Positions 290-12,577 of a stretch of 64,000 nucleotides of DNA are shown here, piece after piece. The notes under the pieces are model-generated. The model did no database searches and was not told where the DNA came from. It saw only the letters and a program-made list of their open reading frames with translations. Position numbers and translations under genes: made by a program. Each line of letters opens with the position of its first letter. Position 1 is the stretch's first letter. The stretch lies in the NCBI GenBank assembly GCA_045803545.1, contig JBJMOW010000004.1, positions 1,056,001 to 1,120,000 on the forward strand, read 5' to 3'. This DNA is from Gemmatimonadaceae bacterium (GTDB taxonomy: Bacteria; Gemmatimonadota; Gemmatimonadetes; Gemmatimonadales; Gemmatimonadaceae).

Positions 290-487
290 GCGGGAGGCGG
301 GAAGCGGGAAGCGGGAAGCGGGAAGCGAGAAGGAGGGCGCGAGAGGCGGGAGGCGAGAGGCGGGAGGAGGATGCATTCGCCTCGCCCTGTCTTCACCGCG
401 CTTCGCTTCCCGCTTCCCGTTTCCCGCCCGCTTCCCGCTTCCCGCCTCCCGCTTCCCGCTTCCCGCTTCCCGCTTCCCGCTTCCCAC
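290..487. repeat. Inverted pair of heptamer tandem arrays: (GCGGGAA/G)~11 at 290-366 and (TTCCCGC)~11 at 407-487
   Basis: Read directly from the sequence. The two arrays are mutually complementary and straddle the stop codon at 393-395. Confidence 0.95.
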
Positions 488-1712
488 TCCTATATGGGCG
501 CTCCCACTCGCGCAGATGATCCAGCAGGTAGTCGAGCGAGAAGACGTGCCGTGAGTTGTCGGCCTTGCGGCGGAAGATCACGCGTGACCAGCCGCGCATC
601 CCCGTCGGGGTGTACCACTCGCCGTTCATGTGCAGCTTGTCGCCATTGATGGCGCGTATCAGTACGCGTTCGTACTGCGACCGCGGAAGCACGCGTTCGG
701 GGAAAAGGTTGTCCCACGTGCAGAGGCGTCCGACGTCCTCGTACCCCGCCGGCCGATCGTCGAGATCCAGCAGTGATGGAGCGCGCCCTTTCATCACCGA
801 GCCAATCAGCCTCAGGGTAAACGGGTCGGAGAAGCGGCGGATGTACGGCCAGAAGTGTTTCGTGATCCGACCGGCCATCTCGCGCAACGTCATGAAACGG
901 CCGTCGGTCGTTGGCCATTTGTCGGTGTCAATGTCGCTGATGAACGGGTTTTCGGGATAGCAATCGAAACGGGCCAGCCATCCTTTGCGCGTCGTGTGCG
1001 GCATTGGACGGAATCCACGAATCACCGGAATGTCGGTGTCGTCAAGCGCGCTGATTTCGTAACTTGGCCACCGCATCACTTCCCGCACAATCCCGACGAT
1101 CAGGGTCGCTGTTGCAATCATGAGCGGTGCGTCGGGAGTGAAGTCGGCAGTGACCTCGATGCGATCGCCGCGCGGCCGCACCCCGATTCCCGTCGAACGC
1201 CGGTTCGCCGCGAGCAGCATCACCGGAATCGGCAGGATGTGCGCGAGCAGATAAGCCAACTGCTCGACGGTGCGCGTCGTCCCCTGCTCGTACTTCGGCA
1301 GCTCGAACGAGATGTTGTAGTGGGTGCTGAAGCCGGCGAGCTGGACGTCGGTGTCGTGTGCCTGCTCCCAGGCATCGAGCTCCTGACGCACGAACAGAAT
1401 CGCTTCCCATAGCGAGCGCCCGGCACGCGCGGCGCAGCCACGCTCGATCTCGATCACTGGCGTCGCCACTTCGATCACGCCCGTATCGAAATACACGGCA
1501 CCGCCAGTTGGCAGGTGATACGACCGTCCTTTGCGGTGCATCATCTTCTCGCGGATGATCCTGCGCGGGCTGCCGAAGAGATCCTCAGGCTTCACCTGCA
1601 CGCCGTCCTGGATCACCGCGAATTCGGCTTCCATGCCGATTGCGGCGAGCTGGATACGCTCGTGCGTGGATGATTTGTTCTCGGGACCTTTCTTTTTCTT
1701 CAGCTCGGTCAT
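393..1712 (-). CDS. Pup-ligase/deamidase (PafA/Dop)-like glutamine-synthetase-fold carboxylate-amine ligase
   Basis: GMEAEF (GxExE), GGAVYFDTGVIEVATP (cf. PafA GARLYLD..HPEYAT), GFSTHYNIS (cf. GCHENY), RGDRIEVTAD (cf. RRLHVIVGD). C-terminus is repeat-derived (SGKREAG)n. Confidence 0.7.
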   Translation of the reverse strand: MTELKKKKGPENKSSTHERIQLAAIGMEAEFAVIQDGVQVKPEDLFGSPRRIIREKMMHRKGRSYHLPTGGAVYFDTGVIEVATPVIEIERGCAARAGRSLWEAILFVRQELDAWEQAHDTDVQLAGFSTHYNISFELPKYEQGTTRTVEQLAYLLAHILPIPVMLLAANRRSTGIGVRPRGDRIEVTADFTPDAPLMIATATLIVGIVREVMRWPSYEISALDDTDIPVIRGFRPMPHTTRKGWLARFDCYPENPFISDIDTDKWPTTDGRFMTLREMAGRITKHFWPYIRRFSDPFTLRLIGSVMKGRAPSLLDLDDRPAGYEDVGRLCTWDNLFPERVLPRSQYERVLIRAINGDKLHMNGEWYTPTGMRGWSRVIFRRKADNSRHVFSLDYLLDHLREWERPYRSGKREAGSGKREAGGGKREAGGKREAGSEAR

Positions 1713-1769
1713 TCTGCCTTCTTACCCAAAGTGCTTCACTCTTTCTGACTCTTTTTCGGGACGATTCCG

Positions 1770-2396
1770 TCAACTTTTAACGTCCCTCGGCACTGAGATG
1801 ACGTATCCCAGGTCGAGGTGTAGATGATCCTCCGCGTAGCCCGTAGGTGTTCCGTAGGGACGCGTCCAAACTCCAGGTAGCGTCTCCCGCGCGATCAGGC
1901 TGAAGCGCTCGATCGCACTTCGGTTGTCCAGGTAAGCGTCGCCAATGCGATAGATATTGGCGGCGGTTCCCCAGGCGTGCGGAGTCGCATTCTTGGAGAA
2001 CCGATGGGAAGGCGACCGATAGCCGCCATTCGCTGAAATGTGAACCAGCGTCCCAACAGCCTCCCGGAACCTCTCCAGACACACTGCAAGGAGGGTTATT
2101 GCGCACGGAACGTACCGGGGGAATGTGCGTAAAGGCGCGGCTTCCCGGACGTCGACCTGTATGAACTCCCAAAGCAGGAAGTGCGTGGAGAGCTCTACCT
2201 TCATCGCCGAGTCCCACGAGGGCACCTCGTAAAAATACCGGGGCAGCTGCCGGGAAAACCCGGTTCCGTCCTTCCATTCCTCCCCCGGTCTCAAGGCTTT
2301 ACGGTACTCAGGCGGCAGGGTCAGGCCGTCAACGACCCGAAGGGGGAAGTTGGGGGACTCATGTCTGGCCTCAGCGAAGCTCGACGGAGCGCTCAT
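1770..2396 (-). CDS. Peptidase M15-like (D-Ala-D-Ala carboxypeptidase fold) protein, no signal peptide
   Basis: GGYRSP, TPHAWGTAAN (cf. SxHxxGxAxD) and EDHLHLD motifs. Overlaps the upstream stop by 4 nt. Confidence 0.7.
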   Translation of the reverse strand: MSAPSSFAEARHESPNFPLRVVDGLTLPPEYRKALRPGEEWKDGTGFSRQLPRYFYEVPSWDSAMKVELSTHFLLWEFIQVDVREAAPLRTFPRYVPCAITLLAVCLERFREAVGTLVHISANGGYRSPSHRFSKNATPHAWGTAANIYRIGDAYLDNRSAIERFSLIARETLPGVWTRPYGTPTGYAEDHLHLDLGYVISVPRDVKS

Positions 2397-3295
2397 TCGT
2401 CGGGTGGGCCTTTGGTGAGGGCTTCATAGATAGCGTGTGAGATGGTGGCGATGGTCCGCGACCGACCCGATGTGTTCGGATCCCATTCCGTAAGAATCAC
2501 CAGCGCGTAAGGTTTGCGCTTGGGCAGGTAGATCACTCCGGCGTCGTGGGCGACGGTGGAAATCTCGCCGGTCTTGTGCGCAACCCGGGTGCCTTTGGGC
2601 AGGCGTGCCGGGATCCCCTGATTGAATTCCTGCCCGTGCATGATGTCCATCATCCGCCGAGACAAAGCCGGTGAGAAGGCTTTTCCCGCCGCCAGCATGA
2701 CGAGAATTCTGAGCAGCCCATTGGCGGTGACGCGGTTATTGATCCCTTTCTCGAACGCGAGCTCGTCCTCGACACCGCGTTTGAGGTCGATGCCTTGCTC
2801 GAGATGCAGCTCGTGCAGGGTCTCGTTGACCGACTGTGGTCCGATGACGCCGAGCACCAGGTTGGTGGCGAGATTGCTCGACGTCGTGATCATGTGGTAA
2901 GCGAGCTCGTCGACGCGCATCATCTTGCCGATGGCGTTGTGGACGGCTGAATTCGCGTCGCGGCCGGACTCGACGCGGAAAGGAATATCTTCGACGACGC
3001 TGAGGAACCGGTTGCGGACGTGGACGCGTGAGTGTGGCAACAAATCGCCCCGGTCAATGGCGGCGAAGACGCCGAGCAGGATCGGTACCTTGATGGTGCT
3101 GGCCGCGTGGAACCAGCGATCGTCGTGGTAATGCAGCTCGAAGCCAGTCTCGAAATCGTGCAGCGCGACGGCGATCGCCTTGGCGCCCGACTCCCTGGCG
3201 ATCTTTTCGATCTGGTTCTCGAGGGCGGACTCACTGGGCGCGGCGGCGCTCACACCGGCTGAATGTGCCGGAGATGTTGTTTCCTTGCTGGTCAT
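2393..3295 (-). CDS. Class A beta-lactamase-like serine hydrolase (Beta-lactamase2 type), no signal peptide
   Basis: AASTIK (SxxK), SSN (SxN), HKTG and HDAG motifs. Confidence 0.9.
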   Translation of the reverse strand: MTSKETTSPAHSAGVSAAAPSESALENQIEKIARESGAKAIAVALHDFETGFELHYHDDRWFHAASTIKVPILLGVFAAIDRGDLLPHSRVHVRNRFLSVVEDIPFRVESGRDANSAVHNAIGKMMRVDELAYHMITTSSNLATNLVLGVIGPQSVNETLHELHLEQGIDLKRGVEDELAFEKGINNRVTANGLLRILVMLAAGKAFSPALSRRMMDIMHGQEFNQGIPARLPKGTRVAHKTGEISTVAHDAGVIYLPKRKPYALVILTEWDPNTSGRSRTIATISHAIYEALTKGPPDE

Positions 3296-3302
3296 CTACC
3301 GC

Positions 3303-4223
3303 TTATGAATACGCTACGCGCGGGTCGGCTTTGGCGTAGGCGAGATCGGTGAGGAGGTTCACCATCACAAACACAACGCTGAGAAAAAGCACCGAGCCCT
3401 GAATGGCGGGCAAGTCCCGTCGCGTGATGGCATTGACGACGTAGCGGCCAAGTCCGGGCCAGCTGAAGATCGTTTCGGTGAGAATGCTTCCCGTCAGGTA
3501 GTATCCGAAATCGAGACCGAGGACGGTGATGATCGGAATGAGTGCGTTGCGGAGTGCGTGGCGCACTATGACGGCGCGTTCCTTCAATCCTTTCGCGCGC
3601 GCGGTTCGCACAAAGTCTCCGCCGAGTACATCCAGCATCGCCGATCGGGTGACTCGCGCGAGGAACGCGATCGAGCGCGAGCCAAGCGCGAACGCAGGGA
3701 GAATCAGATACTTGATTCCGCCGTAGCCGGATGGCGGCAGCCAGCGCAGCATCACCGCGAAGATCAGAATCAGAATCAGCCCGACCCAATACACAGGGAA
3801 AGAGATTCCGAGATAGGCGATGCCGAGACCCAGTCGGTCGAACCAGCCACCTGGAGCCCGGGCACTGAGAACGCCGAGTGTAATACCGAGAATAGAAGCG
3901 AGCAGCATCGCCGATCCGGCGAGAAGCAGCGTTTTCGGGAATCGCTCGAGAATGTCGCGAATGATCGGGCGTTGTGTGATGTACGAGTTGCCCAGATTAC
4001 CGCGCACCACGCCGCCCGCGTACAGTGCGAACTGCTTGAGCCGGGGCTCGTCGAGGTGCAGATCTTTTCTCAAACGCGCGATCGTCGCCGAATCGGCGCG
4101 CTCGCCCACCATCTCGGTTACCGGATCACCCGGTGCGACATTGAGCAAAAGAAATGTCACTACCAGCACCCCGAACAGGGTCGGGATGGCGAGTAGAAGT
4201 CGGCGGACGATGAATGCGAGCAC
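3303..4223 (-). CDS. dppB: Peptide/nickel ABC transporter permease (DppB/OppB type)
   Basis: APGDP, DFVRTARAKGL EAA loop, ETIFSWPGLG, DPRV. Confidence 0.92.
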   Translation of the reverse strand: MLAFIVRRLLLAIPTLFGVLVVTFLLLNVAPGDPVTEMVGERADSATIARLRKDLHLDEPRLKQFALYAGGVVRGNLGNSYITQRPIIRDILERFPKTLLLAGSAMLLASILGITLGVLSARAPGGWFDRLGLGIAYLGISFPVYWVGLILILIFAVMLRWLPPSGYGGIKYLILPAFALGSRSIAFLARVTRSAMLDVLGGDFVRTARAKGLKERAVIVRHALRNALIPIITVLGLDFGYYLTGSILTETIFSWPGLGRYVVNAITRRDLPAIQGSVLFLSVVFVMVNLLTDLAYAKADPRVAYS

Positions 4224-4226
4224 GCC

Positions 4227-5786
4227 CTACTTGCTGATCGTCACGTCAGTCCAACGCTGACCGCTGAACACTGCCGGCACGGCGAAGCCGTGAATCCAGG
4301 GCTGAATGGCGTACATATCCTTGTAGAAAAACAGATACGCCATCGGTGCGTCGGCGAATTGAAGCGAATCCGCCTGCGCGTACAATGCGTTTCGCTTTGA
4401 CTCGTCCTGCTCGCGGTGCGCCTGATCCACCAGCGCGTCGAATTTGGGATTCGAGTAGAAGGAGACGTTGCCGCCGGGCCCTTTGTTCTTGCTGTGCAAC
4501 AGCGGGAACAGGAAGTTCTCCGCGTCGGGATAATCTGCCCACCATTCCTTGACGTAGAGATCGGCGGCTCCTTTGCGCGCTGCCTCGCGCACCGACGATG
4601 CGTCGCGCTGCACGATCTTCGCGCGGATGCCGGCTTCGGCGAGATTGGCCTGAATTGCCTGCGACAGTCGTGGGGACTGGTCGGTCGTGGCCGCCCAGAG
4701 CTCGACGTCGATGCCATTGGGGTGTCCGGCGGCGGTGAGAAGCTGTTTGGCTTTGGCGACGTCGTGCCCATATGGTTTGCGATTGGCGTCGTAGCCGGGG
4801 AGAGTTGGCGGAACGACGCCGTTGGCAACGGCACCGCGGCCGGCCATGACTGCGCTCAGGATGGTGTTGACATCGATTGCGTAGTTCAGCGCCTGTCGCA
4901 CGCGAACATCGGCGAGGGGACCGCGAGTGGTGTTGATCGCGACATACCAGAAGCGAAGCGCGGGAGCGGACTGCAACAGCTTGCTCTTGTCGGGATCCGC
5001 CTGCCACGACTTCCCTGTCTCATCCGGTACGGTCAACACATCGACGTTGCCGGCCTCGAACTCGGCGGTGGCTGTGCTCATCTCGGGAATGATGCGCGCC
5101 ATCAGCGAGTCGCTCTTGGGCAGTCCGTCGAAGTAGTTCGGATTCTTTGCAAACTTGAGGTAATCGTCGTGTTTCCATTCGACGAACTTCCACGGGCCGG
5201 TCCCAATTGGCTTCTGGCCGAAGTCGCTGCCGGCGTTGTCAGGCACGATGGAGTTTACCGGCATTGCCAGCATCTTCGGGAAGATCGAGTAGGGCTCCTT
5301 GAGCGTGATCACGACAGTCGTGTCATTTGGCGCGGCGAGGCCGGTTATCGATGATCCCTTCCCGCCGGCGAAATCCTCAGCGCCTTTGATCGGAAATAGT
5401 GGCCAACCACGCCCGCCCTTCGTCTTAGGGTCGAGGACGCGCTGGAAAGTCGAAACCACATTTTTCGCGGTGAAGTTCGAGCCGTCATGGAACTTGACGC
5501 CGCTGTGCAGGTGAAACGTGTAAGTGAGGCCGTCAGGTGTCACTTCCCAGGACTTGGCGAGTCCGGGGACGACTTTGGCGTCAGCGGTAAATCGAGTGAG
5601 TCCGTCGAAGATGTACGCCACCGCGCGACCGGTCGGCACGTCCGTCGAGAGTGCCGGGTCCATCGATCGCGGGTCGTAAGTATCGCGCGAATCGATCAGT
5701 GTTTTGCGTTGAGGAGCTGATGATTCACCACCACCGCCACCACAGCTGAGAAGTGCGGGTATTACGAAGAGGATTAGTCGCCGCAT
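4227..5786 (-). CDS. Peptide ABC transporter substrate-binding lipoprotein (family 5)
   Basis: Start moved to MRRLILF, lipobox LLSC. Motifs LAKSWEVTPDGLTYTFHL, KFHDG, IGTGPW, VRQALNYAID. Confidence 0.92.
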   Translation of the reverse strand: MRRLILFVIPALLSCGGGGGESSAPQRKTLIDSRDTYDPRSMDPALSTDVPTGRAVAYIFDGLTRFTADAKVVPGLAKSWEVTPDGLTYTFHLHSGVKFHDGSNFTAKNVVSTFQRVLDPKTKGGRGWPLFPIKGAEDFAGGKGSSITGLAAPNDTTVVITLKEPYSIFPKMLAMPVNSIVPDNAGSDFGQKPIGTGPWKFVEWKHDDYLKFAKNPNYFDGLPKSDSLMARIIPEMSTATAEFEAGNVDVLTVPDETGKSWQADPDKSKLLQSAPALRFWYVAINTTRGPLADVRVRQALNYAIDVNTILSAVMAGRGAVANGVVPPTLPGYDANRKPYGHDVAKAKQLLTAAGHPNGIDVELWAATTDQSPRLSQAIQANLAEAGIRAKIVQRDASSVREAARKGAADLYVKEWWADYPDAENFLFPLLHSKNKGPGGNVSFYSNPKFDALVDQAHREQDESKRNALYAQADSLQFADAPMAYLFFYKDMYAIQPWIHGFAVPAVFSGQRWTDVTISK

Positions 5787-5855: not shown

Positions 5856-6128
5856 GTGAGCGCAGAATACTATTATCGCCGCCAACTCGGCGCCAAGGAT
5901 CTGTTGCCGGCAGTTGGTCTCGGCGTCGCCACGGGTTTGGCCGCGTTCTACATTGTGCAACTCTTAATCCAGCGTACGCCTCTGGTGCCTCAAGGCGATT
6001 TGCCACGGACGCCGACGGCGCCGCCACGGAGAATGCTGGGCGATCGGACCGAGCCGGAGACAGAGACCCACTACGCGCGAGAGCTGCCGGCGGGTCAACC
6101 ACCGGGCGCGCGCGCACTGAAAGGGTGA
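5856..6128 (+). CDS. Small single-TM membrane protein upstream of TamA
   Basis: Hydrophobic segment LLPAVGLGVATGLAAFYIVQLLI. Stop overlaps the next GTG (GTGA). Confidence 0.7.
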   Translation: MSAEYYYRRQLGAKDLLPAVGLGVATGLAAFYIVQLLIQRTPLVPQGDLPRTPTAPPRRMLGDRTEPETETHYARELPAGQPPGARALKG

Positions 6129-8377
6129 AGCTGACCCGGGTTCGACTCGGGCTTTTCACCGTATTCGCCTTCCTCGCAGCGACTCCGCTTGTCAGTGCTC
6201 GCGCTCAGGACATCGAGTGCGAGCGCGGAGACCTCGAGGTAATGCAACTCAATTTCGAGGGCAATCATGCATTGTCCGACGCCGAGCTCGCGCGAGCGAT
6301 TGTAACGACACCGTCCTCGTGGGCCCGCCGCTTCCTGCATCTGCCGTTCACCACCAAGCATTGCCTCGACCGGGTCGAGCTGCCGAACGATAGAGCGCGG
6401 CTGATCATTCTGTATCGACGTCGCGGGTTCCCCAAGGTGAAAGTGGACACGGCGGTGAAGGTGCTGGCGCCGGGCGCAGTCGCGGTCACGTTCACGATCA
6501 ACGAGGGGCCCCCGATGATTCTGCGCGGCTTCGGCGTTCAGGGACTCGACTCTGTTCCGGAAGGGCCGCGCTTGCTGCGATCTATCAGGATTAGCGAAGG
6601 AATGCGGTTCGATCGCACGACGATGGATACCGCTGCCAACAGCATTCGTGAGCGACTGCACAACAGCGGATACCCGCGCGCAGTCGCCGAGAACCATCCC
6701 GTCGTCAATGACAGTTCATTGAGTGGCTGGGACACGCTGGTGGTCACGGCCGGACCACGAACGAGAATCGGGGCGATCAAGATCGACGTGACGCCGCTCA
6801 CCGATAGGAAGCAGCAGATTCCTACCCGCATCGTCAGGAAGATCATGGGTCTCGATTCCGGTCAGCTTTATCGCGAGAGTGAGATTCTCGATTCACAACG
6901 CGCGATCTACCAGACCGAGGCATATCAGCACGTGTCGATCGCGCCGGACAGCGGCGCCGATTCTCTGGTGACGCTTTACGTAAATCTGGCGGAAGCGCCG
7001 ATGCACGCGGCGCGCGTCGGAGCCGGCTACGGCACACTCGATTGCTTTCGGCTCACCGGCGAATACACGGACTACAACTTCCTGAACGGCGCGCGCAGAC
7101 TCGATCTCACCACTCGTGTCTCGAAGATCGGAATCGGGCGGCCGCTGGATTGGGAGCCCAACCTGTGTCCCGCCGCGAAGAAGGATGTCTTCAGCAATCG
7201 GCTCAACTACTACGCCGGCGCAACGCTGCGACAGCCGGTGTTCCTCGGCTTGCGGACGGTGCCGACGCTGACGGTGTACTCGCAGCGGATCTCGGAATAC
7301 AACGCATATCTGCGGACAACGTCCATCGGTGGCGCGGCGTCGTTGATCTGGCGCAGCCTCACACGCACACCGGTGAATCTGACCTACTCGATGGATCTCG
7401 GACGCACCGAAGCGCAGCCGGCTCTGTTCTGCGCGGTGTTCAATCTGTGTGAGGCGGCCGAGCGCGAGCGGATACAACGGACACAGCAGCTGGCGATCCT
7501 GAGCCTCGCGGTAACGCGCGACAACTCGAACAATTTGTTATCGCCAACTCGCGGTTCGGTGATTCGGTTGGAGGCTCGGCATTCTTCGCCGGCGATCCTC
7601 TCCAACAAGGACCTGCAGTTCAACAAGCTGGTCGGCGATGCTTCACGTTACATCGCGGTTGGCAGCTCGGTGATTGCAATGCGCGTCCGTGGCGGGTCGG
7701 TCTTTGGCCGCAACGTTCAATCAGCGACCGGGTTCATCCCGCCGCAGGAGCGTCTCTATGCCGGTGGTCCGACAACTGTGCGCGGATTCGCTCAGAATGA
7801 GCTTGGGTCGCTCATCTACATCTCCGGGTCTCAGGAAGCATTCTTCATCGACAACCCAAACGGGACCCGCGATACGGTGCTGCTGCAGGAGCACACGGAC
7901 AGCGCTGTCCGGCGAACCGTGCCTGTGGGCGGTAACTCTTTGGTTGTGGGGAATCTCGAGCTCAGAATGCGCAGTCCATTCCTGTCGGAGCTGCTGCAAT
8001 GGACCCTTTTTACGGATGCAGGCGAGGTATGGAATCGGGGTACTGGCCAGCTTAAGCAGGTGAAGCTCAAAGTGACGCCAGGAATTCAACTTACGGCGTT
8101 CTCTCCGGTGGGACCTGTGCGTCTAGCAGTAGGGTACAATCCATACCGCCGACCGCCGGGGCCGATCTACTTTGAAGGGACCAGTCTGGGTGGTGAGTTA
8201 TTGTGCGTAAGTCCGTTCAACACCATCAAGACACACATCACGTACGATACGAATGGGAATCCGACGAGCATTAGTCAGGACCCGGGCGGCATCTGTCCCT
8301 CGACGTATCAACCGCCGACGGACAACAGTCTTCGCAGCAAGCTCACGTTCAGCTTCGCGATCGGTCAGGCTTTCTAA
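6125..8377 (+). CDS. tamA: Omp85/TamA (BamA-like) outer-membrane protein with POTRA domains
   Basis: Signal peptide from GTG 6125, FEGN POTRA start, YAGGPTTVRGF loop-6 motif, C-terminal IGQAF. Followed by TamB. Confidence 0.88.
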   Translation: MKLTRVRLGLFTVFAFLAATPLVSARAQDIECERGDLEVMQLNFEGNHALSDAELARAIVTTPSSWARRFLHLPFTTKHCLDRVELPNDRARLIILYRRRGFPKVKVDTAVKVLAPGAVAVTFTINEGPPMILRGFGVQGLDSVPEGPRLLRSIRISEGMRFDRTTMDTAANSIRERLHNSGYPRAVAENHPVVNDSSLSGWDTLVVTAGPRTRIGAIKIDVTPLTDRKQQIPTRIVRKIMGLDSGQLYRESEILDSQRAIYQTEAYQHVSIAPDSGADSLVTLYVNLAEAPMHAARVGAGYGTLDCFRLTGEYTDYNFLNGARRLDLTTRVSKIGIGRPLDWEPNLCPAAKKDVFSNRLNYYAGATLRQPVFLGLRTVPTLTVYSQRISEYNAYLRTTSIGGAASLIWRSLTRTPVNLTYSMDLGRTEAQPALFCAVFNLCEAAERERIQRTQQLAILSLAVTRDNSNNLLSPTRGSVIRLEARHSSPAILSNKDLQFNKLVGDASRYIAVGSSVIAMRVRGGSVFGRNVQSATGFIPPQERLYAGGPTTVRGFAQNELGSLIYISGSQEAFFIDNPNGTRDTVLLQEHTDSAVRRTVPVGGNSLVVGNLELRMRSPFLSELLQWTLFTDAGEVWNRGTGQLKQVKLKVTPGIQLTAFSPVGPVRLAVGYNPYRRPPGPIYFEGTSLGGELLCVSPFNTIKTHITYDTNGNPTSISQDPGGICPSTYQPPTDNSLRSKLTFSFAIGQAF

Positions 8378-8383
8378 GCCGGG

Positions 8384-8411
8384 CTTCCGCCTCTCGCCTC
8401 TCGCCCTCCGC
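8384..8411. repeat. Four heptamers (CTTCCGC/CTCTCGC) filling the tamA-tamB spacer
   Basis: cttccgc ctctcgc ctctcgc cctccgc. Confidence 0.75.
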
Positions 8412-8413
8412 GA

Positions 8414-11400
8414 ATGACCCGGCGTCTCCGCATCGCCATCGGCAGCGCGATCATCCTGTTCGGGTTGATCATGATTGTCGTGCTCGGCTTCATCGGCATC
8501 ACGCATACGAGCGTGGGCCAGGAGCGTGTGCGGAGCATGATCGCGACCCTACTCGAAGGTAAGGTCAAAGGAAGAGTCTATCTCGGCCACCTGAGCGGCG
8601 GCCTCGTCGGCGGAGTCACAATCGACTCGGTCGAAATTCGCGACGACGAGGATTCGGTGTTTTTCGCATCGGGACCAATCACGGTTGCATACGATCCACG
8701 CGATTTGCTGGATCGCCGCATTCTCTTCAGTCGGGTTGAGGCGCAGCGGCCCTACGTGCACCTGCGTCAGCACGAGAACGGCGAGTGGAATTTCCGCCGC
8801 ATTTTCCCGGCGAGCGTGGAGAAGCAGCAGCGAAATCAGCGCGGGTTCGGACAGTACATCGTCGCCGACACGTCGATCGTCCGCGATGCGCGGATGGATC
8901 TGACACTGCCTTGGCACCTGTCCGACACTCTGCGTGGCTACAAGCGCGACAGCGCGGTGCGCTACGAGCTCACGCGCAAAGATCACGAGATTCACAAGAC
9001 GCGTGAGGGTTATGCGCGCACCTGGCGCTGGAGTGATATCGACGCCGACCTCGGCTACGCTCGCATCGCAGATCCTGACACAGTCGGTCGTTTGATTCGC
9101 ATTCGGAATGTCAGCCTGACTGAGACGGATCCGCCGTTCAAGTTCCGAAACGTCGCCGGTACTTTCCTGAATCTTGGCGACTCGGTGTTCATCGATGCCG
9201 ATCATTTTGATCTGCCCGGATCCACCGGTCGCGCGCACGGCAGCGTGATCTGGGGCAGCGATCTGCCTGTTCGCTATTACATACATGTAGTAGGAGACTC
9301 AGTCTCCCTCGCCGATGTAGCGTGGGTGTATCCGACGCTGCCTAAGACGGGCAGTGGCAAGATGGAGCTCGACATCCGCAGCGAGCGAAATCCCAAGCTT
9401 CTCGACTACATCATCAGCAACATGGATGTGCGCTCGACTCGCTCGCACCTGCTCGGCAATATGACGTTTGGCACCGGGGGTAGCGTACTGGCGGTGAAGA
9501 ATGTCGAGCTGCAGGCAGCGCCGGTGAATTTCGACTTGCTGCGGACGCTGAACGGCAAGCCGTTCCCGTACAACTGGCAGGGAAACATCACCGGTACGGT
9601 GCGGGCGTCGGGCGGCCCACTCAATCACTTCAAGGTTGAGGAGTCGGCGTTGATCTTCGACGACGCCAACGTGGCCGGCGCCGAGACCGAGGCGCGCGGC
9701 AATGGCGAGCTGGACATCCTGTTCCCGGCGTTCACTGCCTTTCACGCATTCAACGTCGACGTCGCGACGCTCGATCTGCGCACACTGCAGTACCTCAATC
9801 CGCAGTTCCCGCGGATCAAAGGCACCGTCTCGGGCACTGCGACGCTGGACTCCTCGTGGCTGGACGTTCGCTTCAGCAACGCCAGCCTGTTCCATCACGA
9901 TGGCAACCTCCCGCTGTCGCATGCAACGGGGAATGGCCGCATCACGTGGGGCGAGAAGTATCTCACCTACGATTTGAATCTTCACGCCGAACCGCTGTCG
10001 TTTACCGCGCTGGTGCACTCTTATCCGTTGCTGCCACTGCGCGGCAGCTACCAGGGCCCGGTGCAGGTGAAGGGACAGTCGCCCGGCCTACTGGTGAACG
10101 CGACCCTGACCGGACCGGCCGGCCAGTTCGCGTACAGCGGGCTCGTCGACGCGGATCCTTTGGTCTACGGTGCACGTGGGCGCGCGACTTCGACCGCGCT
10201 CGATTTGCGCACGCTGATGGACAACAGTCAGCTACCGCACACTCAGCTCACCGGGCGCTATGATCTGGATCTGCACGGCGCTGACCTGCCGTCACTCGCG
10301 GGCAGTGCAGTAGCGCAGATCGAGAAGTCGACACTCGGCGGATTCCGCGTCGATCCGTCGGTGGCACGCTTGCATTTCGCGAACGGCGTAGCGACTGTCG
10401 ACACCCTCGCGATCAACGCATCGGGACTGCAGGCGAGCGCGGCCGGCACCTTCGCGCTGACAGGAGCGCACCAGGGCTCGCTGAAGTTTTCGGCGGAGAT
10501 GGATTCGCTGGCGCGGCTGCGCACTCTGGTGCCGGCGCTCGCAACCAACGCTCAACTCGATTCGCTGCGCGGCAGCGGCCAGCTTACCGGCGAGCTCTCG
10601 GGCAGTATTGAGCATCTCGCGCTAAATGGAGTGATCCGCGCCAACGATGTCAGTTTCGGCAGACAGAGCGTAGAGAGCATTCGTGGTACACTGCTTCTCG
10701 CGGACATCACCAAACAGCCTACAGGCTCCTTCCTCTTCGGCGCGGACACCGTCGCGCTTGGACCCGTCGGGTTCAACAGCATGCGGGCAACAATAGCGCT
10801 GACCTCGCCGACGTCCGGGCATTTCAGCGCATCCATGCTGAGTCAGAGCGGCGTGTCGACCGAGCTCGCCGGCAACATCACACGCAGCAAGGACACGACA
10901 ATCGTGCGCCTTGACAGCGCAGCGGTTGACGTCGACGCGGACAACAGATATCGGCTACAGTCGCCGAGCAAGGCGGTATTGTCGAAGGGATTTCTGTCGC
11001 TCGATTCATTGATTCTGCAACACAGCAGCAACGCCAAGCTCATCGTCCAGAACCTGCGCTTTACCGGCGACTCGATCAACGGACACATTCGCACGGACAG
11101 CGTCGACATGCGTCTCTTCCGCGCCTTCGTACCGGGACTGGTAGACGCTCGCGGCGCGATTGTCGCCGACGTCGACGTGCGCGGCGCGGTCAAGCAGCCG
11201 CGTCTCTATGGCCAGATCACGTTGCCGGATGGAACTGCTGCCTTCTCAAACCTCGGCACACGTTTCAATCACATCCGCGCGAACATCACGCTCGACGGCG
11301 ATTCCGTGCACATCAAGCAGTTGTCGGCGGAGACCAACAAGGACCGTCGCGGATCGGCGAACGTGACGGGCACGGTGAGCTTCGAGCATTATGACAATCC

Positions 11401-12577
11401 GTCATTCTCGATCGTGGCAAACGCGTCGAACTTCCACGCCATCGACAAGCCTGGACTGGCAGCGCTCGACATCTCGACTGGACCGCCAGTGACGCTTAGC
11501 GGGTCAACGCAGGACGCGGTTTTGCACGGCGCCGTCCGCGTCGAACGCGGGTCGATCTACATCCCGGAAGTCATCAAGAAGAACGTGATCGACTTGAACG
11601 ATCCCGATCTGCAGACGACCGTCGACACGCTGCTGTCGCAGAATCGAGAAGTGATGCCGCGCGCGCCAAAGGCAGTCGCACGCAATCTCCGGCTTGAAGA
11701 TGTGAACGTCGATATCGGACCCGACGTCTGGCTGCGTTCATCGGAAGCCAACATCAAGCTGGGCGGGTCGCTGAACGTGACGATGGCATCCGGCGGTCCT
11801 GGCCAGCCACCGCAGCTGGCGTTGCAGGGAATCTTGAGCGCAGACAAAGGCACCTATCGACTGAACCTGGTCGACCCATTCGTCCAACCGACCTTCGACG
11901 TGCAACGCGGAACGCTGACGTTCTACGGAGACACTCAGCTGAATCCGCTGCTCGACATCGCCGCCATTCACACGGTTCGTCAGCCGAGGATTCAGACCGC
12001 AAACGGTCGTGACGTGCGTGTGGAGGTCGACATCACCGGTACACTGGCGCGGCCATCGCTCGCGCTCAAGAATCCGGACAACCTGCCGTTGTCCGAGAGC
12101 GACTTGCTCAGTTATCTGGTGACGGGTGAGCCGGCGGTCGGTCTCGACAACACCGGAACGCAGGTCGCCGCCCTCGGCGTCCGTACCGCGGCCAACCTGC
12201 TGGTGAGCGCATTGCCGAGGAACGTCGTCGATTATCTGGAGATCCAGACGGCAGCGCCCGGTAGCGATCCAAATCAGGCGTCCTCACTGTCGCAATACTA
12301 CGGGTTGTTGAACACCCGCGCGATACTCGGCAAGCAGGTTGGCAGCAAGTGGTTTGTCGGCCTCAGCACTGGACTATGTTTCGTAAGCTCCAGTCTTTTC
12401 AAAGAGAATTTGGGCCTGCAGCTCGAGTACAGAATCAGTCCGGTGTTGAGTGCACAGGCCGCAATCGAGCCGGGCTCCAGCGCTCGGTGCGACCCGACTG
12501 GTCAGAAGCTGGTGATCCCGCCGAACCAGACTCCATCACAGCTCGGCTTCGACCTCTTTCGCAACTGGCGTTTCTAA
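8414..12577 (+). CDS. tamB: Translocation/assembly module TamB (AsmA-like, DUF490)
   Basis: 1387 aa with N-terminal TM anchor, beta-rich body and LSESDLLSYLVTG C-terminal motif. Directly follows the Omp85 gene. Confidence 0.88.
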   Translation: MTRRLRIAIGSAIILFGLIMIVVLGFIGITHTSVGQERVRSMIATLLEGKVKGRVYLGHLSGGLVGGVTIDSVEIRDDEDSVFFASGPITVAYDPRDLLDRRILFSRVEAQRPYVHLRQHENGEWNFRRIFPASVEKQQRNQRGFGQYIVADTSIVRDARMDLTLPWHLSDTLRGYKRDSAVRYELTRKDHEIHKTREGYARTWRWSDIDADLGYARIADPDTVGRLIRIRNVSLTETDPPFKFRNVAGTFLNLGDSVFIDADHFDLPGSTGRAHGSVIWGSDLPVRYYIHVVGDSVSLADVAWVYPTLPKTGSGKMELDIRSERNPKLLDYIISNMDVRSTRSHLLGNMTFGTGGSVLAVKNVELQAAPVNFDLLRTLNGKPFPYNWQGNITGTVRASGGPLNHFKVEESALIFDDANVAGAETEARGNGELDILFPAFTAFHAFNVDVATLDLRTLQYLNPQFPRIKGTVSGTATLDSSWLDVRFSNASLFHHDGNLPLSHATGNGRITWGEKYLTYDLNLHAEPLSFTALVHSYPLLPLRGSYQGPVQVKGQSPGLLVNATLTGPAGQFAYSGLVDADPLVYGARGRATSTALDLRTLMDNSQLPHTQLTGRYDLDLHGADLPSLAGSAVAQIEKSTLGGFRVDPSVARLHFANGVATVDTLAINASGLQASAAGTFALTGAHQGSLKFSAEMDSLARLRTLVPALATNAQLDSLRGSGQLTGELSGSIEHLALNGVIRANDVSFGRQSVESIRGTLLLADITKQPTGSFLFGADTVALGPVGFNSMRATIALTSPTSGHFSASMLSQSGVSTELAGNITRSKDTTIVRLDSAAVDVDADNRYRLQSPSKAVLSKGFLSLDSLILQHSSNAKLIVQNLRFTGDSINGHIRTDSVDMRLFRAFVPGLVDARGAIVADVDVRGAVKQPRLYGQITLPDGTAAFSNLGTRFNHIRANITLDGDSVHIKQLSAETNKDRRGSANVTGTVSFEHYDNPSFSIVANASNFHAIDKPGLAALDISTGPPVTLSGSTQDAVLHGAVRVERGSIYIPEVIKKNVIDLNDPDLQTTVDTLLSQNREVMPRAPKAVARNLRLEDVNVDIGPDVWLRSSEANIKLGGSLNVTMASGGPGQPPQLALQGILSADKGTYRLNLVDPFVQPTFDVQRGTLTFYGDTQLNPLLDIAAIHTVRQPRIQTANGRDVRVEVDITGTLARPSLALKNPDNLPLSESDLLSYLVTGEPAVGLDNTGTQVAALGVRTAANLLVSALPRNVVDYLEIQTAAPGSDPNQASSLSQYYGLLNTRAILGKQVGSKWFVGLSTGLCFVSSSLFKENLGLQLEYRISPVLSAQAAIEPGSSARCDPTGQKLVIPPNQTPSQLGFDLFRNWRF

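Follow-up and report, generated by a model that had tools for sequence, protein, structure and literature searches.

A conserved three-gene cassette joins a PafA/Dop-like predicted ligase to two peptidase-fold proteins in Gemmatimonadota and Acidobacteriota

A stretch of 64,000 nucleotides (the window) from the genome of a Gemmatimonadaceae bacterium (assembly GCA_045803545.1, contig JBJMOW010000004.1, positions 1,056,001 to 1,120,000) carries three adjacent genes that recur together in other bacteria. They code for a serine hydrolase related to PBP-A, a protein with the fold of M15A peptidases and a 439-amino-acid (aa) protein with a predicted glutamine synthetase (GS) fold. The last protein represents an abundant unannotated family, the nearest structural relative of the pupylation enzymes PafA and Dop found here outside the Pup system. 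We tentatively propose that the three proteins salvage or edit peptidoglycan stem peptides in the cytoplasm, the ligase activating the gamma-carboxyl of peptide-bound glutamate.

Conservation of the three-gene cassette

The first-pass annotation of this DNA had assumed a single system of five co-oriented genes, in which the triad is joined by a DppB-type permease and a family-5 binding lipoprotein. All five minus-strand open reading frames (ORFs) are present (Table 1), separated by exactly the gaps it had given, 3, 7, -4 and 57 nucleotides (nt); the length of the binding protein is counted from the ATG that opens its lipoprotein-type signal. Pfam names the binding protein, the permease and the hydrolase, the last as Beta-lactamase2. 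The 439-aa and 208-aa proteins have no Pfam or NCBIfam match at E<=0.1, and their closest homologues with a name are annotated as hypothetical proteins in Gemmatimonadaceae.

Table 1. Features of the locus and its immediate surroundings
Feature	Position	Strand	Basis
439-aa GS-fold enzyme, unannotated family, nearest PafA/Dop	393-1712	minus	ORF and model
208-aa M15A-fold protein (Zn DD-peptidase/Hedgehog-like) with conserved family-specific N-terminal part	1770-2396	minus	structure match
300-aa PF13354 serine hydrolase without signal peptide	2393-3295	minus	Pfam; 4-nt overlap with next gene
DppB/OppB-type permease, 306 aa, core gene beside insertion site	3303-4223	minus	Pfam BPD_transp_1
Family-5 solute-binding lipoprotein, 519 aa, core gene beside insertion site	4227-5786	minus	Pfam SBP_bac_5
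Two oppositely oriented 7-nt repeat arrays at ligase gene end	289-367 and 404-485		dispersed genomic repeat
mpl block, left of window	L001:14260-15642 = G000:C2:1054260-1055642		TIGR01081

Gene neighbourhoods were compared for 177 ligase loci in 42 clusters (80% identity), 107 of them in the window's own cluster; 38 loci with short flanks were excluded, and the context counts leave out the most distant homologues (34-47% identity; P0126, P0138, P0140, P0150). Among the 115 loci whose upstream sequence extends for 2.6 kb or more, 111 (30/34 clusters) keep the order hydrolase, M15-like protein, ligase, as the idea of a conserved triad had predicted. Its carriers belong to Gemmatimonadota, Acidobacteriota and the family of Ramlibacter. 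All four exceptions are second ligase copies from Acidobacteriota that carry the triad as well. Such lone paralogues (L199, L200, L202, L205) occur within one Acidobacteriota clade and have unrelated neighbours; by analogy, a lone paralogue in a genome with the triad might reflect a division of labour like that between PafA and Dop.

Common inheritance of the three genes is seen in several ways. Strong matches to the M15-like protein occur in the same 12 of 301 Gemmatimonadota genomes as the ligase, with weak matches only in 4 more; the protein trees are congruent, with 14-16 of 30 splits in common where chance gives no more than 3; and in one protein (P0394) the M15-like part and the ligase are fused. 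P0395, a candidate fusion of ligase and metallo-beta-lactamase, was dropped, as it reads as frameshifted. A fourth conserved gene was rejected as well: no more than three families are shared by over 7 of the 42 clusters (ORFs shorter than 70 aa were not compared). The ligase is found in 41 of 251 genomes of its own family, 9 of 301 Acidobacteriota and 3 of 201 members of the family of Ramlibacter. No relative of it was present in plasmids or viral contigs, and none of the three proteins matched the anti-phage models of PADLOC, which would miss a defence system of an undescribed kind. Prediction of a complex of the three proteins, with the M15-like one as partner, scored 0.78; the score fell to 0.00 and 0.00 when the partner was replaced and stayed at 0.76 when the ligase was. 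This outcome gives no answer and is counted neither for nor against binding. The only named isolate among the carriers is Ramlibacter terrae H242 (L074, CP053418.1), whose hydrolase and ligase genes are each split over two frames, by decay or assembly error.

The transporter genes have a different history. The permease lies upstream of the triad in all 52 loci of the window's own cluster and in only 2 of 32 clusters altogether. In 8 of 8 relatives examined, binding protein and permease occupy the same core locus without the triad, and two of these (G281, G076) hold the triad elsewhere; in three relatives of the window's genus the permease directly abuts a trxB-like gene. Since relatives have the transporter site without the triad, the triad belongs to a block that was acquired or lost beside core transporter genes. 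The block missing from the empty site includes mpl, a 176-aa gene without NCBIfam match, a second lspA-like gene and the triad. The short gaps of 3 and 7 nt make co-transcription with permease and binding protein plausible in the window's clade, and this, with the constant position of the permease there, is what speaks for five genes forming one dedicated import-and-process system. The distribution of the permease and the eight triad-free sites speak against it: we regard such a system as highly improbable, and as a general claim it is largely refuted. The peptide importer is no part of the system, and the conserved unit comprises the three enzyme genes alone.

The three enzymes had been described as lacking signal peptides. 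A hydrophobicity screen (10-residue Kyte-Doolittle mean >=2.0 at the N-terminus) agrees: the proportion with a signal-like stretch is 1 of 31 for the hydrolases, 1 of 35 for the M15-like proteins and 1 of 41 for the ligases, compared with 55 of 55 for the binding proteins, which supports a cytoplasmic location.

The ligase-like protein

An AlphaFold (AF2) model of the 439-aa protein (predicted local distance difference test, pLDDT, 90.9) consists of a catalytic core at about residues 22-345, a small C-terminal beta domain at 345-405 and a repeat-encoded tail at about 410-439. PafA is the best structural match (Foldseek E 2e-9; Z 18.3, root-mean-square deviation (rmsd) 4.1, 321 residues). Dop reaches the same Z of 18.3, YbdK follows with 17.3 (rmsd 3.6, 258 residues) and other GCS and GS chains lie below; the first 18 chains of the comparison all have the GS fold. 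The proposed GS/GCS fold nearest to PafA/Dop is thereby supported at the level of the model, on which the fold alone does not separate PafA/Dop from YbdK, one Z unit away. The alignments differ in extent: that with PafA spans residues 22-405 of the model and 10-471 of the chain, and that with YbdK ends at residue 332.

The motifs noticed at first sight, GxExE (26-30), YFD..IEVATP (74-85), STHYN (129-133) and RGDRIEV (181-187), are all in the protein. They are not chance resemblances, because their polar residues are invariant: E28, E30, D76, E81, H131, N133, R179, R181, R184, E186 and D190 are identical in all 41 cluster representatives. Features of GS-fold ligases given by Iyer et al. 2008 (PMC2588565) are GhExE in strand 1, acidic residues in strands 2 and 3, [HQD]x[NH] in strand 4 and an arginine in strand 5; their counterparts here are G26-E28-E30, D76, E81, H131-N133 and R179/R181 (41/41, with strands taken from the model). 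Strand 6 reads R184-x-E186-x-T188-x-D190 and is invariant; its spacing fits neither Ex[RK]x2D nor [QH]x4D, the polar residue is kept, and the motif appears to combine features of PafA with those of GCS2.

Profile comparisons point to PafA/Dop in the N-terminal region. A profile of 15 PafA/Dop-family proteins from Gemmatimonadota matches the N-terminal 60 residues of the ligase, strand 1 to strand 3 (P 3e-6 and 7e-6), and a YbdK profile of 6 sequences gives no match (P 0.046). E28 and D76 are 48 residues apart, as in the PafA-like L225 and closer than in the Dop-like L218; by this spacing the Dop loop, 40-65 extra residues before strand 2, is absent. The place of the PafA alpha-loop (two Thr, one Arg) may be taken by N170-x-x-S173-T-G followed by R179/R181, in a region where the alignment is unreliable. 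W375 of the C-terminal domain, a candidate counterpart of the Trp that PafA/Dop have at the nucleotide pocket, is kept in 40 of 41 representatives; comparison of this domain with that of PafA by profiles fails (P 0.12), although the structural alignment extends into it. The ligase has no match to PF03136, TIGR03686 or TIGR03688, nor to PF04107 or TIGR02050 (YbdK/GCS2), a Pfam scan of 92 alignment members had no match either, and searches of PDB sequences with the ligase or its profile returned nothing meaningful. The ligase is no member of the PafA family; from sequence and model it is predicted to act as a carboxylate-amine ligase, on the side of PafA.

The family has at least 4,926 relatives (clusters at 90% identity, among 7,999 candidates scored), or 437 at the 50% level. 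Several ligases (L198, L201, L203, L204, P0123, P0124, P0127 and P0133) have a long low-complexity ERR/DRR insert between the GS and C-terminal domains, and the M15 partners of such ligases end in similar motifs. Ligases of one clade (L087, L088, L143-L146, L148) end in Arg-Gly-Gly, a ubiquitin-like terminus that was not seen in other clades.

Relation to the Pup system

The source genome (93% complete) has no match to PF03136 or PF05639, and its sole PF00227 match is HslV beside HslU, as we name these two from their sequences. The lack of pup and proteasome genes noted in the window thus extends genome-wide to Pup, Pup ligase and proteasome; UBact was not searched. None of the 22 other carriers has PF03136, so that no Pup ligase was found in any of the 23 carrier genomes. 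Among 301 Gemmatimonadota genomes, 7 have a PafA-family protein and 12 the cassette ligase (source genome and G096 included), with no overlap. In some Gemmatimonadota genomes (G189:C11, G003:C15 and C171, G018:C39, G223:C1) divergent matches to the PafA/Dop family number up to four or five, and several of these lack typical motifs. A Pup-like acidic tail on a partner protein was considered and rejected: the terminal residues vary, and none of the three proteins has a conserved terminal Glu or Gln.

These data bear on the suggestion that the cassette tags proteins independently of Pup. The ligase would attach glutamate, a short peptide or a trimmed stem peptide to protein lysines as a small gamma-glutamyl tag, and the two peptidase folds would mature or erase it. 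PafA is after all the nearest structure, and the alignment with it, unlike that with YbdK, reaches a C-terminal domain which according to PMC8599861 is found only in pupylation enzymes; in addition, the ligase has an invariant Asp in strand 2, and the extra ligase copy of four Acidobacteriota genomes is reminiscent of the PafA/Dop pair. PafA itself recognises proteins via rim arginines (PMC10465538). A tag gene is not apparent, however, as no small ORF or fourth gene is conserved (within the size limit given above) and no partner ends in a constant Glu or Gln. The source genome has no proteasome, the profile match of the C-terminal domains fails, and D-amino-acid peptidase folds would be unexpected as erasers. 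Tagging is therefore an unlikely function in our view. Quite improbable, and less probable than that, is a special form of it, in which this sister family of Pup ligases would join a peptidase-trimmed wall peptide (L-Ala-gamma-D-Glu) to lysines of cytoplasmic proteins, with a modifier that is not genetically encoded.

The two peptidase-fold proteins

The serine hydrolase keeps SxxK, SxN and KTG motifs in 34 of 34 members (here S66-x-x-K69, S139-S-N141 and K241-T-G), and motifs RNRF and RGVED, both invariant, are specific to it. Its nearest solved relative is PBP-A Tll2115 of Thermosynechococcus (PDB 2J7V; E 2.8e-26); PBP-A, described from cyanobacteria, is a DD-carboxy/endopeptidase preferring D-iGln peptides (PMC11189452). 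The class A beta-lactamase model NF033103 gives 114 bits and does not reach its cut-off of 200. Glu176 is present in 33 of 34 hydrolases and may correspond to the omega-loop Glu166, in a stretch where the alignments are gapped. A second PF13354-like gene, with 41% identity to the cassette hydrolase, lies elsewhere in the source genome (G000:C3:101938-102771).

For the 208-aa protein the best structure is 1LBU (Z 9.9, rmsd 3.0, 113 residues), followed by other M15 and Hedgehog chains. Foldseek alone returned nothing under E 0.001, and PF08291 matches weakly in 30 of 69 M15-like members (best E 0.001). The NGGxRS and HxxGxAA motifs align with 1LBU, and His140 and His193 are invariant. The Asp zinc ligand of 1LBU aligns with position 147, where the window's protein has Asn, which breaks the His-x6-Asp pattern; Asn stands there in 26 of 35 clusters and Asp in 9 of 35. 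The fold bears out the earlier description of the protein as M15-like, and its peptidase activity is uncertain.

The same features can be read as a sign of chemistry unrelated to the cell wall, namely synthesis of gamma-glutamyl metabolites or inactivation of soil antibiotics, the latter by beta-lactam opening, VanX-like cleavage or gamma-glutamylation. The conserved Glu176, the closeness of YbdK to PafA and the patchy occurrence of a mobile three-gene unit at many genomic sites would all agree with it, and other GS-fold ligases encoded next to peptidases are proposed to make peptide metabolites (PMC2588565). A serine enzyme without signal peptide that falls short of the class A cut-off does not fit well, no tailoring, export or regulator gene is conserved, and the link to mpl described below would stay unexplained. 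We consider this reading about as unlikely as protein tagging.

Association with mpl

Just left of the window, about 750 nt past the stop codon of the ligase and convergent with it, is mpl, the gene of a muropeptide-recycling ligase (TIGR01081, 426 bits; cut-off 389). Of 68 loci in the window's own cluster, 64 have mpl as a neighbour of the triad, and the arrangement is not fixed: the genes are convergent in the window's genus, mpl is head-to-head with the hydrolase in genus g21, and they are convergent at another site in G187; in L148, mpl is 4.6 kb from the triad. Within the sampled members of the window's genus, mpl is present in the 9 carriers and was not found in the 4 non-carriers. A query with this single mpl protein detected the subtype in 15 genomes out of the 251 of the family, and 13 of the 15 carry the triad (divergent mpl-like genes, such as those of G281 and G076, are not counted this way); G909 has it without an adjacent triad and G892 at a contig end. 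With the family model, an mpl-like gene (E<=1e-100) occurs in 16 of 20 carriers versus 5 of 20 non-carriers, and exceeds the cut-off in 11 versus 3. The difference is seen in Gemmatimonadota (5/6 carriers, 1/12 non-carriers) and in Acidobacteriota (9/11 and 4/8).

Association with Mpl is relevant to the possibility that the cassette is catabolic and Dop-like. Stepwise cuts would then remove D-Ala5, D-Ala4 or the cross-link and the gamma-D-Glu-diamino-acid amide, or the third enzyme would remove an amide. Dop scores as high as PafA, two of the three genes have hydrolase folds, and Dop is reported to function without its loop (PMC7947786). The same text calls water as nucleophile unique to Dop in the superfamily, and the ligase, with its 48-residue spacing, lacks the Dop loop. 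Moreover, Mpl requires an intact tripeptide, and association with it argues against destruction of the peptide. Catabolism of this type seems to us distinctly unlikely, somewhat more so than tagging or small-molecule chemistry.

Proposed function

The first-pass annotation had left three options for the module. Muropeptide salvage has gained independent support from the mpl association, and the tag and antibiotic options are left as the rivals weighed above. We therefore return to stem-peptide salvage or editing. Processing of stem peptides in the cytoplasm is suggested because two stem-peptide peptidase folds without export signals, the recurring Mpl and a ligase from the branch acting on peptide-bound glutamate come together. 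In L-Ala-gamma-D-Glu-mDAP (mDAP, meso-diaminopimelate), as in Pup-Glu(gamma)-Lys, the glutamate is N-acylated, its alpha-carboxylate is free and its gamma-carboxyl is bound as an amide. By analogy, this shared topology may be mapped onto the cassette ligase.

The triad could then be a self-contained cytoplasmic cassette, often located beside mpl, that processes peptidoglycan stem peptides after uptake. The PBP-A-like serine enzyme would remove D-Ala5 or split D,D cross-links of imported peptides. The M15A-fold protein would trim or bind the product, and may have little or no catalytic activity in those members where Asn replaces the Asp ligand. The PafA-like enzyme would use ATP and Mg to activate an N-acylated terminal glutamate, for instance that of L-Ala-D-Glu, by phosphorylation of its gamma-carboxyl, and pass the gamma-glutamyl group to an amine (mDAP, Lys, Orn or similar). 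The gamma-D-Glu-diamino-acid bond would thereby be rebuilt or edited, and own or foreign peptides could enter recycling of the Mpl type. Substrate and direction of reaction are inferred; ligation is the more probable direction, since the ligase has no Dop loop and Dop is the one member of the superfamily reported to hydrolyse (PMC7947786).

Several observations weigh against this proposal. On the side of the enzymes, Glu176 of the hydrolase may be the equivalent of E166, and peptidase activity of the M15-like protein is uncertain because its Asp zinc ligand is mostly replaced. Not all PF13354 proteins are DD-peptidases, and we know of no GS-fold enzyme that accepts D-Glu peptides. The importer lies outside the cassette, which leaves the entry route of peptides unexplained, and four ligase paralogues stand without partners. 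As to mpl, the genomes compared were hand-picked kin. It is adjacent in 4 of 42 clusters and in genus g21 only, most carriers having it elsewhere, at each of the 85 loci that show it, it runs opposite to the triad, and an mpl-like gene was not found in 4 of 20 carriers. For these reasons mpl is a supporting association, not a fourth subunit. The 3 carriers and the 2 non-carriers compared all have MurE and two S66 LD-carboxypeptidase-family genes. The idea that the cassette replaces MurE or LdcA was rejected on this ground, and the cassette would rather be an add-on, used for example on foreign or modified soil peptides.

Comparison with known systems

With PafA/Dop (PF03136, TIGR03686, TIGR03688; PDB 4BJR, 5LRT, 9CKU) the ligase shares, besides the best structural matches, the GhExE, YxD, ExxTP and HxN motifs, an Arg before strand 6, PafA-like spacing and probably the small C-terminal domain with its conserved Trp. 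Identity is nevertheless only about 11-13%. The His between the strand-2 Asp and strand-3 Glu is missing, Glu replaces His in strand 6, and the segment between strands 4 and 5 is about 22 residues shorter; the lack of family matches, of a Dop loop and of Pup or proteasome partners, and the separate sets of genomes, also set the two apart. YbdK/GCS2 (PF04107, TIGR02050; PDB 1TT4, 1R8G) has in common with it the GS fold, the strand-5 Arg-Pro and the strand-6 Glu. It differs in that its Ex[RK]x2D corresponds to E-x-T-x-D in the cassette ligase, which has an extra C-terminal domain and gives no YbdK profile match; the source genome moreover has a separate GCS2-family gene.

Ligases beside peptidases, with no Pup-like ORF, are known from the Rv2566-like and CJD_1902-like amidoligases of Iyer et al. 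2008 (PMC2588565); their partners there are transglutaminase-like, glutamine-amidotransferase-like or Aig2 proteins, instead of PF13354 and M15A. PBP-A (Tll2115) has the catalytic motifs of the cassette hydrolase, which differs by its own RNRF and RGVED motifs, the missing signal peptide and the fixed partners. The M15A Zn DD-carboxypeptidase of Streptomyces albus (1LBU) resembles the 208-aa protein in fold and in the two shared motifs, and differs from it in that the cassette protein has Asn for the Asp ligand, an extra conserved N-terminal part and a cytoplasmic location. MepK and VanX/DdpX are further known M15A proteins for comparison. Cytoplasmic muropeptide recycling in E. coli employs Opp/MppA, LdcA, Mpl and MpaA. 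It likewise trims stem peptides in the cytoplasm with Mpl, whose gene is the convergent neighbour here, but it includes no cytoplasmic GS-fold, PBP-like or M15A protein; the S66-family genes of the source genome are separate from the cassette.

We found no account of the ligase family or the cassette in the published literature, the supplementary neighbourhood lists of PMC2588565 and a 2009 amidoligase survey being outside the search. Operons of a ligase with peptidases are known, and what is new is the ligase family, the set of partners and the link to mpl. Origin of pupylation from a small-molecule ligase has been proposed (PMC2588565), and the mixture of PafA-like and GCS2-like motifs bears on it. 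Should stem-peptide processing prove true, the cassette would contain a GS-fold enzyme acting on D-glutamyl wall peptides and would add an undescribed recycling step to soil Gemmatimonadota and Acidobacteriota; should proteins be modified, it would be a new tagging system. The three proteins are small and soluble, which makes either claim directly testable.

Other features of the locus

A scan of the locus for promoters and terminators gave chance levels only. Nine soil metatranscriptomes contain 5-8% of the words of the locus, and contigs from four runs cover parts of all genes, some at 99-100% identity; these are not counted as expression, because strand and level are not visible and DNA may be present. 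Divergently from the binding protein gene run a 90-aa ORF (5856-6128, plus strand) and then an Omp85/POTRA gene and a gene for a 1,387-aa protein that we label TamB-like (6116-12577, plus strand).

The last approximately 30 codons of the ligase gene consist of the 7-nt repeat array at 404-485 and encode no domain, a point that was overlooked at first; the array has lengthened the C-terminus of the protein. The source genome has 63 arrays of this tandem repeat by pattern search. They are similar to repetitive extragenic palindromic (REP) elements, frequently lie as oppositely oriented arrays at gene ends, and occur also around hslV.

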